A DNA stretch of 63,920 bases from Patescibacteria group bacterium UBA1396 (GTDB lineage: Bacteria; Patescibacteriota; Microgenomatia; UBA1400; UBA1396). Numbering within the stretch: the stretch's first letter is position 1; every line of letters begins with the position of its first letter. This document shows positions 2,452-4,025 of the stretch, piece after piece. Both the position numbers and the translations under genes were made by a program. Below the pieces are notes generated by a model. The model searched no databases and had not been told where the DNA came from. It saw nothing but the letters and a program-made list of their open reading frames with translations. Location of the stretch: NCBI GenBank assembly GCA_002305195.1, contig DBQK01000009.1, forward strand, positions 61,575-125,494. Direction: 5' to 3'.

Positions 2452-2479
2452 AAGTCGCAAAATGTATATTGTGCGACAT
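2452..2479. other. dif-like Xer recombination site (28 bp)
   Basis: AAGTCGCAAAA-TGTATA-TTGTGCGACAT: 11-6-11 layout, central hexamer identical to E. coli dif, arms inverted with 2 mismatches, 570 bp upstream of the Xer gene. Confidence 0.8.
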
Positions 2480-2972
2480 ACTATTGACATAGCGAAGTAG
2501 TGCTCTCACTGCTTTCAAACAGCCTTTTTAAATGATCCAACAATTTCGGATTTAAGTAATTTCCTCTATTTTCTTAATTACTCCAACTCTACTTATTGGT
2601 GATATTAACTAACCTAACCTAATTTGTACAATAACCCGAATCTTTGAACCATAATTTAACTGAATTGATAGCTAAAGATACAATTAGACATCATTTGTAT
2701 ATGATGGATATATCATAAAATTAAAAAAAAGCCGATTTTAGACCCTTAGAGCGGCTTATAGCCTGGGAAACGGTGCTAAATTATCTAACAATATGTTTGT
2801 TCGGAACGCCCTGGCCAAAATAGTTGCCAGGTGGTAGATTCTCTGCTGCAGCCGCTGCATTAGATTCATCATTTGTTTCGTGGATTAGAGAAAGAGTAAT
2901 ACATCCTTATTTTTAATAAATATATCATAAAAAGATGTTGAATGTTTTTTCTGGATTGATATTCTAATTATT

Positions 2973-3024
2973 ATGTCGCAGAATGTTTGATAGCTTGACA
3001 TGTGATGGTTTTATGTCGCACAAT
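2973..3024 (+). promoter_or_regulatory. Putative xer promoter overlapped by two dif-arm copies
   Basis: TTGACA at 2995-3000; ATGTCGCAGAA at 2973-2983 and ATGTCGCACAA at 3013-3023 (exact reverse complement of the dif right arm). Confidence 0.6.
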
Positions 3025-3031
3025 AATTTAG

Positions 3032-3040
3032 TTATCCACA
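3032..3040 (+). promoter_or_regulatory. Perfect DnaA box 7 bp before the xer start
   Basis: TTATCCACA. Confidence 0.6.
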
Positions 3041-3047
3041 ATTTTTT

Positions 3048-4025
3048 ATGGCAACACCCTCCTCTCCTCTATCCAACCAAACCCTCGATCAACAAATTCA
3101 GGACTATTTAGAGCACCTTGAAGTTGAGAAAAATTTATCAAAATTAACGATTAGAGACTATCGACATTATTTGACCAGGTTATCCGATTGGTGTCAAAAA
3201 CACCGGATTAAACAAGCTCAAGACTTAGATAACGCAACCATCAAAAAGTATCGGTTAAGCCTGGCGCGCCAGGAAACCGATCAAGGCAAGCAGTTATCTA
3301 AGCGAACCCAAGCTTATTATTTGATCGCTTTGCGCGCTTTTTTAAAGTGGCTGGCGCGCCAAGACCTGGAGGTTTTGTCGGCAGAAAAAATCGATCTTCC
3401 CAAAGCTGAACCACATCAATTATCGTTTCTAACCGCCGAACAGGTTCAGCGATTGCTACAAATGCCTGACGTACACTCGGTTAGAGGTGCCAGGGACAAA
3501 GCAATCTTGGAAGTTTTGTTTTCAACTGGATTAAGAGTTTCTGAGCTCGTGTCGTTAAATCGAGATCAAGTTAATCTGGAAACCAAAGAATTTGGTGTAG
3601 TTGGCAAGGGGCGTCGTTTGCGGGTGGTTTTTCTTTCTGACCAGGCGGTTTATTGGCTAAATCACTATTTGCAACATCGCACCGATGATTGGCCACCCGT
3701 GTTTATTCGCTATGCCAAAGGTATTGATCCAACTGATGATGGTGAAACAATGCGTTTATCGGCCAGATCGGTGCAAAGAATTGTAGAAAAATATAGAAAA
3801 TTAGCGCATATACCAGTAAAAATTACACCTCATAGCTTACGGCACTCCTTTGCTACTGATTTACTTCGCAACGGGGCTGGCCTCAGGGATGTACAAGAGT
3901 TATTGGGTCATAAAAACGTGGCTACAACACAAATTTACACTCATGTTACTAAACCGGAATTAAAGCGAGTACATCAACGTTTTCACTCTCAAAATTCAGG
4001 AAAGTTATCTCGGTTAGATGAATAA
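3048..4025 (+). CDS. XerC/XerD-family tyrosine recombinase
   Basis: N-terminal SAM-like domain; catalytic motifs TGLRVSE, HSLRHSFAT, LGH, TQIYTH; 325 aa. Confidence 0.95.
   Translation: MATPSSPLSNQTLDQQIQDYLEHLEVEKNLSKLTIRDYRHYLTRLSDWCQKHRIKQAQDLDNATIKKYRLSLARQETDQGKQLSKRTQAYYLIALRAFLKWLARQDLEVLSAEKIDLPKAEPHQLSFLTAEQVQRLLQMPDVHSVRGARDKAILEVLFSTGLRVSELVSLNRDQVNLETKEFGVVGKGRRLRVVFLSDQAVYWLNHYLQHRTDDWPPVFIRYAKGIDPTDDGETMRLSARSVQRIVEKYRKLAHIPVKITPHSLRHSFATDLLRNGAGLRDVQELLGHKNVATTQIYTHVTKPELKRVHQRFHSQNSGKLSRLDE

Follow-up and report, generated by a model that had tools for sequence, protein, structure and literature searches.

The genome of Patescibacteria group bacterium UBA1396 contains, within the 63,920-nucleotide stretch analysed here (the window), a 28-bp sequence at positions 2452-2479 which is very likely the chromosomal dif site, with the tyrosine recombinase Xer1, encoded beside it, as its recombinase and the whole as a locus for the resolution of chromosome dimers. 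The window corresponds to positions 61575-125494 of contig C5 in a 666-kb metagenome-assembled genome (MAG) composed of 12 contigs and estimated to be 73% complete. Patescibacteria, or Candidate Phyla Radiation (CPR) bacteria, are ultra-small and represent a large share of bacterial diversity, almost none of them have been cultured, and little is known of how they manage their chromosomes. An initial annotation of the window had already proposed a dimer-resolution locus of a CPR bacterium, and this proposal is supported by the conservation of the locus, by the convergence of sequence polarity on the site and by a peak of GC skew on its own contig. The two central features are the following.

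2452-2479, no strand assigned: putative dif-type recombination site, 28-mer AAGTCGCAAAATGTATATTGTGCGACAT, with left arm AAGTCGCAAAA (2452-2462), centre TGTATA (2463-2468) and right arm TTGTGCGACAT (2469-2479).

3048-4025, plus strand: Xer1, XerC/D-like tyrosine recombinase of 325 aa, complete open reading frame (ORF).

The 11-6-11 layout of the site is typical of the Xer/dif architecture, which spans 28-31 bp with inverted arms of about 11 bp and a centre of 6-11 bp. A check by hand bore out the geometry, the TGTATA centre and the arm scores of the initial annotation, with 6/11 and 7/11 positions identical to the arms of Escherichia coli dif and 9/11 identical between the two arms as an inverted repeat. 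The 28-mer is found in single copy in the window with up to 3 mismatches, a threshold at which 100 shuffles returned 0 matches, and in single copy in the entire 666-kb assembly. The site had also been described as symmetric, which holds for the 9/11 agreement of the arms but not fully, as arm position 9 consistently differs between them (C vs A). In Microgenomates the consensus is A(T/C)GTCGCACAA-TAWWAC-TTTT(G/A)CGAC(A/G)T, and its information profile reveals arms which are kept and a centre which varies. The arm with C at position 9 faces xer in the family to which the window belongs and faces away from it in other families; when set in the same orientation as the site of the G010 type, this swap takes only three substitutions, so a physical inversion need not be assumed.

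The Xer1 ORF begins 568 bp past the site, where the initial annotation had placed a single Xer gene at about 570 bp. The protein features a Pfam Phage_integrase domain (4.8e-45) and a SAM-like N-terminal domain, and its catalytic R-K-H-R-H-Y set is complete (R163, K187, H262, R265, H288 and Y297) and invariant in 18 orthologues. With the NCBIfam models it scores 248.5 bits for XerD (cut-off 329.6) and 245 bits for XerC (cut-off 335.15), reaching neither, and 129.7 bits for XerS, below the cut-off of 267; the recomb_XerA_Arch model is passed marginally, at 221 bits against a cut-off of 220, and the name of this model also covers integron integrases. The closest solved structure is that of E. 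coli XerD (2.3e-43), and no XerH structure was among the structure matches at E <= 1e-10. On the other side of the gene, gyrA, an inorganic pyrophosphatase gene and gyrB (4077-9548, minus strand) run convergently onto the xer stop codon. Gyrase genes are more often located close to the origin.

Conservation was assessed in 61 Microgenomates genomes (Pace-, Woese-, Curtiss-, Levy-, Gottesman-, Shapiro-, Daviesbacteria and others) with the pattern GTCGCANAAT-N5-TTNTGCGAC, up to 2 mismatches being allowed and the reversed pattern serving as control. An orthologue of Xer1 with 50-71% identity was found in 60 of the 61 relatives, and the site, nearly always in single copy, in 57, with around 0 matches to the reversed control. 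The site is located upstream of the Xer1 orthologue by 0.3-3.7 kb wherever both share a contig, the larger distances being those of G023 (6.7 kb) and L099 (7.4 kb). In an alignment of the site and its 20-bp flanks from 14 genomes the core GTCGCAnAAT..TTnTGCGAC is invariant and the flanks are unrelated; the DNA between site and xer is likewise unrelated among loci, and its length varies. A search for the motif upstream of orthologous xer genes had been suggested as a check in the initial annotation, and its outcome, a site retained in 57/61 relatives amid diverged flanks, speaks for the proposal.

On a broader scale, 121 genomes spread over Patescibacteria were searched with up to 1 mismatch. 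Of these, 55 have exactly one copy of the site and 114 an Xer1 orthologue, with an identity that declines with taxonomic distance as vertical descent predicts; the control pattern matched two genomes. Adjacency of site and xer is confined in this sample to the class Microgenomatia (G021, G101, G155 and G200), while in other classes the two are far apart: 561 vs 129 kb in G148, 673 vs 357 in G122, 69 vs 542 in G121 and 76 vs 542 in G139 (site vs xer). Since the site is single-copy and distant from xer in these classes, it cannot be a mere xer operator and is kept for its own sake. Several lineages carry identical arm cores on either side of the site, GTCGCACAA...TTGTGCGAC.

These data bear on the possibility that the palindrome is the operator of a transcription factor, or the end of a mobile element carrying xer, and not a chromosomal recombination site at all. 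Its palindromic form, its position upstream of a gene and the presence of arm copies in the xer promoter would suit such an explanation, but the variable distance to xer across unrelated DNA and the separation by hundreds of kb outside Microgenomatia would not. Furthermore, the site is single-copy and xer lacks a second full site on its flank, the identity pattern of Xer1 is that of vertical descent, and phages devoid of xer carry the site; the explanation is thus highly improbable. A mobile element inserted between site and xer was considered for host loci with a long gap (2.6-7.4 kb) and was not supported, as no second full site was found in them.

A dif site is expected to lie where the two chromosome arms meet, and polar sequence words locate this point at the site. 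All 6- to 8-mers were counted in the sampled genomes under a model in which both arcs have a leading strand running from dnaA to the site, and the top 8-mers were GTGGGGGA (30:3 and 24:1), GTAGGGGA (31:4 and 27:0) and TAGGGGAG. Across 64 related loci, aligned with xer on the plus strand to the right of the site, GTRGGGGA is found 51:3 (plus:minus) left of the site and 4:52 right of it, and TRGGGGAG 43:0 and 4:61, the strand flip occurring inside the first kb on either side. The word is directed towards the site regardless of gene direction (142:8 in co-oriented genes, 55:7 in head-on genes and 28:1 in intergenic DNA), whereas the coding-linked control GAAGAAG tracks gene direction instead (659:184 vs 91:236). 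Nor is it a by-product of composition, since in the weak arc of G041 the polar word lies on the C-rich strand (14:2), against the bulk composition which generic G-rich words follow (GGGGAG 20:95).

Five complete relatives (G040, G041, G023, G010 and G060) were sampled, with 20 pieces of 20 kb taken from each. All of them, G060 included, show a sharp switch of the word at the site, e.g. from 10:0 to 0:15 in G041 and from 7:0 to 0:13 in G023, with its peak density beside the site; the opposite switch is diffuse, coinciding in G040 and G010 with the dnaA region and in G041 and G023 extending well past it. On contig C5 itself the strict word has five copies left of the site, all on the plus strand, and one on the right, on the minus strand, and a relaxed word is distributed 22:2 and 0:4. 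The copy proximal to the site is the following.

1979-1986, plus strand: polar word GTAGGGGA, pointing towards the site.

By analogy, the polar word is to this site what the FtsK orienting polar sequences (KOPS) are to dif, and the nine relatives examined for FtsK all have one with a gamma domain (9/9).

Gene orientation changes at the same point. According to a crude ORF call of contig C5, 42 genes are on the plus and 26 on the minus strand left of the site (42/68 towards it), and 19 and 39 on the right (39/58 towards it), in agreement with the roughly 40 of 60 right-hand genes which the initial annotation had seen facing the site. GC skew on this contig, in 5-kb steps, is positive in 11/13 intervals up to 65 kb and around zero beyond; in 2-kb steps, it is positive in 9/10 intervals over the 20 kb to the left and negative over the 16 kb to the right, and the cumulative curve peaks locally at the site. 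The same check of GC skew, recommended in the initial annotation, therefore turned out favourably on the own contig, but yielded only a step in amplitude in 4/5 complete relatives. In the 64 loci, the plus strand carries 81% of the coding sequence on the left of the site and 27% on the right, and raw GC skew per 1-kb bin steps at the site from +0.13 to +0.17 on the left to +0.02 to +0.07 on the right, the left value exceeding the right one in 47/48 loci; gene orientation accounts for most of this step. What is expected of a terminus is hence found in gene orientation and polar-word convergence, both in the 64 loci and in the five complete genomes.

The circle as a whole offers a context for these values. 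GC skew has one sign round the entire chromosome in G040, G041, G023 and G010; in G041 it ranges from -0.2 to -0.5, and the coding-sense skew at third codon positions (GC3 skew) is about ±0.25 to ±0.74, its sign following the gene strand. The one-sign skew of Microgenomates has been published, and unidirectional replication or an origin adjoining the terminus was tentatively given as its cause (Kadnikov et al. 2020, PMC7143001). The same four genomes (loci L134-L213) are divided into a zone of strong and a zone of weak skew with borders at dnaA and at the site, the distance from dnaA to the site being 0.46, 0.41, 0.42 and 0.37 of the circle, respectively. This zoning is new relative to PMC7143001, and it reconciles the absence of a skew switch with a two-armed chromosome.

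Several observations weigh against a chromosomal dif at this position. FtsK was not found in this MAG, which is 73% complete. The step in strand-corrected GC3 skew at the 64 loci is small (0.21 vs 0.17), with the left value above the right one in 36/52 loci, and the sign of the skew is unchanged at the site in most relatives. G060 (L114-L133), the sole complete relative sampled with an ordinary two-sign skew, has skew switches near dnaA (62 kb) and at around 500 kb, as seen in GC3 skew, and its site, at 741.5 kb, is separated from dnaA by only 0.20 of the circle. The switches of gene orientation and of the polar word in this genome both coincide with the site at 741.5 kb, and a rearrangement, a misassembly or uneven chromosome arms are possible causes of the mismatch. 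Finally, a conserved array of sequence words on one side of the site hints at a control unlike that of a plain FtsK/dif system. In the window, it comprises the following features.

2005-2247, no strand assigned: one-sided accessory array on the side away from xer, delimited by conserved words, namely TCCTATAAT at 2005, TGATATAGTT at 2081, TGATTTAGTT at 2100 and AACCCGAA at 2122 and 2240.

2057-2065, minus strand: perfect DnaA box TGTGGATAA, inside the array.

Within 600 bp of the site, the words TGATATAGTT, TGTGGATAA, TTTTCACG, AACCCGAA and TCCTATAAT show a 15- to 47-fold enrichment in the 64 loci, and nearly all their copies are located 100-600 bp out on one side. Four of these five occur at 2005-2247 in the window, TTTTCACG being known here from relatives; one extra AACCCGAA is found at 2633 (2633-2640).

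In the plasmid sites cer and psi, the selectivity of resolution derives from one-sided accessory sequences. The site might similarly depend on accessory sequences and not on FtsK, with the array and its DnaA box binding architectural proteins which would form a topological filter, selectivity then being independent of a location at the terminus. Such a mode of action would accommodate the conservation of the array in most of the 64 loci, the distance between site and skew sign change in G060 and the missing sign change in most other relatives, but it leaves aside a KOPS-like word which converges exactly on the site and is densest beside it, as well as the conserved FtsK with its gamma domain. 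Moreover, the array was not seen with the copies of the site in phages, though it was not looked for systematically. The probability of this alternative is accordingly small, and the chromosomal dif site remains the preferred reading.

A further question is whether one or two recombinases are employed. The initial annotation had counted one Xer gene, a count which does not hold for the genome as a whole, where a second Xer-like gene was found on contig C7.

Contig C7, 124503-125357 (L002:1453-2310), minus strand: Xer2, second tyrosine recombinase of 285 aa, Xer-like by NCBIfam.

With orthologues of 45-80% identity in about 54 of the 61 relatives, Xer2 is no stray integrase, and in the five complete genomes it is located around 105-130 kb from dnaA. 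The catalytic Lys is replaced by Q or H, and His-II by Asn, throughout the six orthologues that were aligned (6/6); two catalytically complete paralogues, the mark of XerCD, were hence not found. Xer2 is absent from G053, G057, G020 and G037, all of which have Xer1 and the site, and on the phylum scale it is present in 31/121 genomes and absent from about 47 of the 55 bearing the site, many of which show one Xer-like candidate only. The reverse is observed in family f37 (G115, G142, G166 and G189), where Xer2 is present and neither Xer1 nor, with up to 1 mismatch, the site was found; these genomes may use another site or lack the system.

Because Xer2 is catalytically degenerate and absent from most site-bearing genomes, many of which have a single Xer candidate, Xer1 is likely to act alone at the site. 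The action of a single recombinase, as originally suggested, is favoured by this phyletic pattern and by the residue loss in Xer2, even though two Xer-like genes are present. The wide occurrence of Xer2 in Microgenomates and the one-base asymmetry of the arms, which count on the opposing side, would leave room for a two-protein complex in Microgenomatia, i.e. an XerC/D-like system with Xer1 on one arm and Xer2 on the other as partner or regulator. The consistent C vs A at arm position 9 and the Xer-like rating of Xer2 would agree with such a pair, but the loss of catalytic residues, the site-bearing genomes devoid of Xer2, the family with Xer2 and no site, and the location of arm-type half-sites in the xer1 promoter all speak for Xer1 by itself, and a two-protein system is improbable.

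The half-sites are part of a compact upstream region, with the following features.

2995-3024, plus strand: putative sigma-70-like xer promoter (TTGACA, 18 nt, CACAAT), a pattern match only, scoring 10/12 in a consensus scan.

2973-2984, plus strand: arm-type half-site ATGTCGCAGAAT, upstream of the -35 box, with one mismatch to the 12-mer ATGTCGCACAAT.

3013-3024, plus strand: arm-type half-site ATGTCGCACAAT, identical in sequence to the right arm and overlapping the -10 box.

3032-3040, plus strand: perfect DnaA box TTATCCACA, located past the -10 box and ahead of the xer start codon.

TTGACA and the spacing are conserved in family members, and the layout of half-sites and promoter recurs in G006, G008 and G003. 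Genome-wide, the family of the 12-mer ATGTCGCACAAT occurs at this locus only (the right arm, 3013-3024 and, with one mismatch, 2973-2984). The 300 bp preceding xer show a 37-fold enrichment in arm cores of the xer orientation, which are present there at 35/64 loci. The simplest reading of this arrangement is that xer1 is probably repressed by its own product through the half-sites.

The DnaA box at 3032-3040 is kept as TTWTCCACA in G006 and G008, and a DnaA box is found about 330 bp from the site in 38/64 related loci. There are nine perfect DnaA boxes in the 666 kb, two of which bracket the gap between dif and xer. A replication origin was considered for this region and rejected: with up to 1 mismatch allowed, DnaA boxes do not cluster here, dnaA and the three boxes beside it are located on a different contig, and polarity is convergent, not divergent. 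A structured RNA in the 1.1-kb gene-free gap was likewise discarded, as no Rfam match at gathering scores (one at chance level, E = 0.25) and no tRNAs were found. The chance-level match is the only one to an imperfect GC-rich hairpin at 2258-2290, GGCGGGCCCTCT-CAAG-AGGACCCGCC, with T and A runs alongside. Between site and xer, the block 2727-2768 (AAAAAAAAGCCGATTTTAGACCC...CCTGG) is conserved in the family, AAAAGCC and CTGG being invariant; it was considered by eye as a candidate terminator of a minus-strand transcript, but relatives do not preserve the stem and share no convincing hairpin. The block has no Rfam match. A consensus scan of 1900-4150 returned no intrinsic terminators.

Taken as the chromosomal dif site and its recombinase, the locus would operate as follows. 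One Xer1 monomer would bind each of the near-identical 11-bp arms through the core GTCGCAmAA, and the two sites of a chromosome dimer would be paired within an Xer1 tetramer, where two successive pairs of strand exchanges over the 6-bp centre would restore monomers. FtsK, known with its gamma domain from relatives, would be guided along each arm by GTRGGGGA(G), whose direction is away from the dnaA region and towards the site; at the septum, as this closes, FtsK would bring both sites into contact and probably activate Xer1. Xer1 would also probably repress its own promoter through the two half-sites, which are placed on either side of the -35 box, one of them overlapping the -10 box. We infer each of these activities, i.e. 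DNA binding, cleavage, FtsK dependence, autoregulation and the use of a single recombinase, from comparisons among genomes.

Copies of the site are also present in viruses. A search of IMG/VR with GTCGCACAA-N6-TTTTRCGAC recovered the site in at least 101 contigs, compared with 11 for the reversed pattern used as control. Misfiled host xer loci were ruled out as the source of these matches by the presence of an Xer1 orthologue in 0/80 of the viral loci fetched; the exceptions are L253 and L258, which are host fragments with small integrated elements. The commonest gene clusters of the site-bearing viral loci are the terminase large subunit, portal, helicase and primase, and five loci (L226, L231, L237, L272 and L280) carry the exact 24-bp core of the site of this genome. 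The Pfam Phage_integrase domain is absent from 34/38 whole viral records, including 15/17 which are at least 90% complete and 9/9 with direct terminal repeats; serine integrases were not searched for in these records.

The two host fragments show what integration at the site may look like. The direct repeat of L253 measures 19 bp and has its two copies 5.5 kb from each other, one within a full site (AAGTCGCAAAA-TATACA-TTGTGCGACAT) and one within a hybrid site where only centre and right arm are left; L258 has a corresponding pair of full and hybrid site (centre plus one arm), whose 21-bp direct repeats are separated by 5.3 kb. The elements between them are the following.

L253, 1325-6861 (IMG/VR contig): inovirus-like element.

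L258, 2225-7564 (IMG/VR contig): inovirus-like element.

Both elements, of 5.3-5.5 kb, consist of small genes and encode a Zot-family morphogenesis ATPase, which is above the Pfam cut-off in L253 and below it in L258 (E = 0.0013, 18.6 bits), and that of L253 also encodes a rolling-circle Rep (G2P). No Phage_integrase domain was found in the seven ORFs of the two elements scanned against Pfam, a scan which did not extend to serine integrases. The flank of L258 contains a cellular murG gene; since the flank genes of both fragments have no match in Microgenomates loci, their hosts are probably other CPR lineages. Integrative mobile elements exploiting Xer (IMEX), which integrate by means of the host recombinase, have been reviewed (PMC5357621), and by analogy the arrangement of L253 and L258 is an IMEX layout. 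CPR phages, both tailed and inovirus-like, probably attain lysogeny by borrowing the Xer of their host.

Comparison with characterised systems indicates that this is a variant of Xer/dif which belongs to neither the XerS nor the XerH family and is not a typical XerCD pair. With XerCD/dif of E. coli and CodV-RipX/dif of Bacillus subtilis it shares the 28-bp 11-6-11 site, an XerD-like protein and, in relatives, the gamma domain of FtsK, together with converging G-rich polar octamers, comparable to KOPS and to the SpoIIIE recognition sequences (SRS), and mobile elements which exploit Xer. Unlike in XerCD/dif, the arms are near-identical (9/11, with identical cores in some lineages), the gene adjoins the site, most site-bearing genomes have one Xer gene, and Xer1 is under the equivalog cut-offs of both XerC and XerD.

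Among single-recombinase systems, XerS/difSL of streptococci and lactococci uses a 31-bp difSL with an 11-bp centre and depends on FtsK and polar motifs (PMC1914069, PMC2965235, PMC5357621). The proposed use of one recombinase, a gene adjoining the site (at 568 bp here), the FtsK gamma domain of relatives and the polar word are common to both; on the other hand, the site here is 28 bp with a 6-bp centre, Xer1 is XerC/D-like and the linkage is confined to Microgenomatia. XerH of Helicobacter and Campylobacter is a single, FtsK-dependent recombinase with its site near the gene (PMC3325230, PMC5241119), is 354-362 aa long and about 26% identical to XerCD, and acts on a difH which is not of canonical 11-6-11 length (PMC5357621). 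A single recombinase, as proposed here, and a site near its gene are thus shared, whereas difH has other arms and a longer spacer, and Xer1 has 325 aa. In archaea, XerA is a single recombinase acting on a conserved 28-bp dif, with which it forms a xerA/dif module in some species, and is reported not to need FtsK; short polar sequences converge on archaeal dif, which is often not 180 degrees from the origin (PMC2958812, PMC5357621). The present system resembles it in the one recombinase proposed, the 28-bp site, the polar convergence and an Xer1 which just reaches the XerA_Arch cut-off, and differs from it in a bacterial host, in relatives with FtsK (gamma domain in 9/9) and in the sequence of the arms.

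The initial annotation knew of no earlier description of such a system, and a full-text literature search likewise returned no paper linking dif, Xer or KOPS to Patescibacteria or Microgenomates. What the present analysis adds is a degenerate Xer2 with its phyletic pattern, a linkage confined to one class set against a site present in nearly half of the phylum sample, and a test in which polar-word direction was set against that of the genes.

The phylum-wide consensus GTCGCAmAA-N6-TTnTGCGAC, together with GTRGGGGA, provides a marker of terminus and arm polarity which needs sequence only and aids the closing and checking of MAGs. The site in CPR phages helps in assigning them to hosts, and the compact pair of recombinase and site could be tried for marker excision. 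The question raised in PMC7143001, whether one-sign skew reflects unidirectional replication, now becomes testable, given that two arms meet at the site, around 0.4 of the circle from dnaA, in 4/5 complete genomes. A tentative picture, which as a whole is on the unlikely side, is that of a single-recombinase Xer system used throughout the phylum on a near-palindromic dif of canonical length, organised in Microgenomatia as a self-contained platform (dif, a one-sided array with a DnaA box, a self-repressed xer and a degenerate Xer paralogue as regulator), the site being the true terminus. If it is the true terminus, the one-sign skew ascribed to unidirectional replication in PMC7143001 would be superimposed on a normal chromosome of two arms and would call for a different cause.

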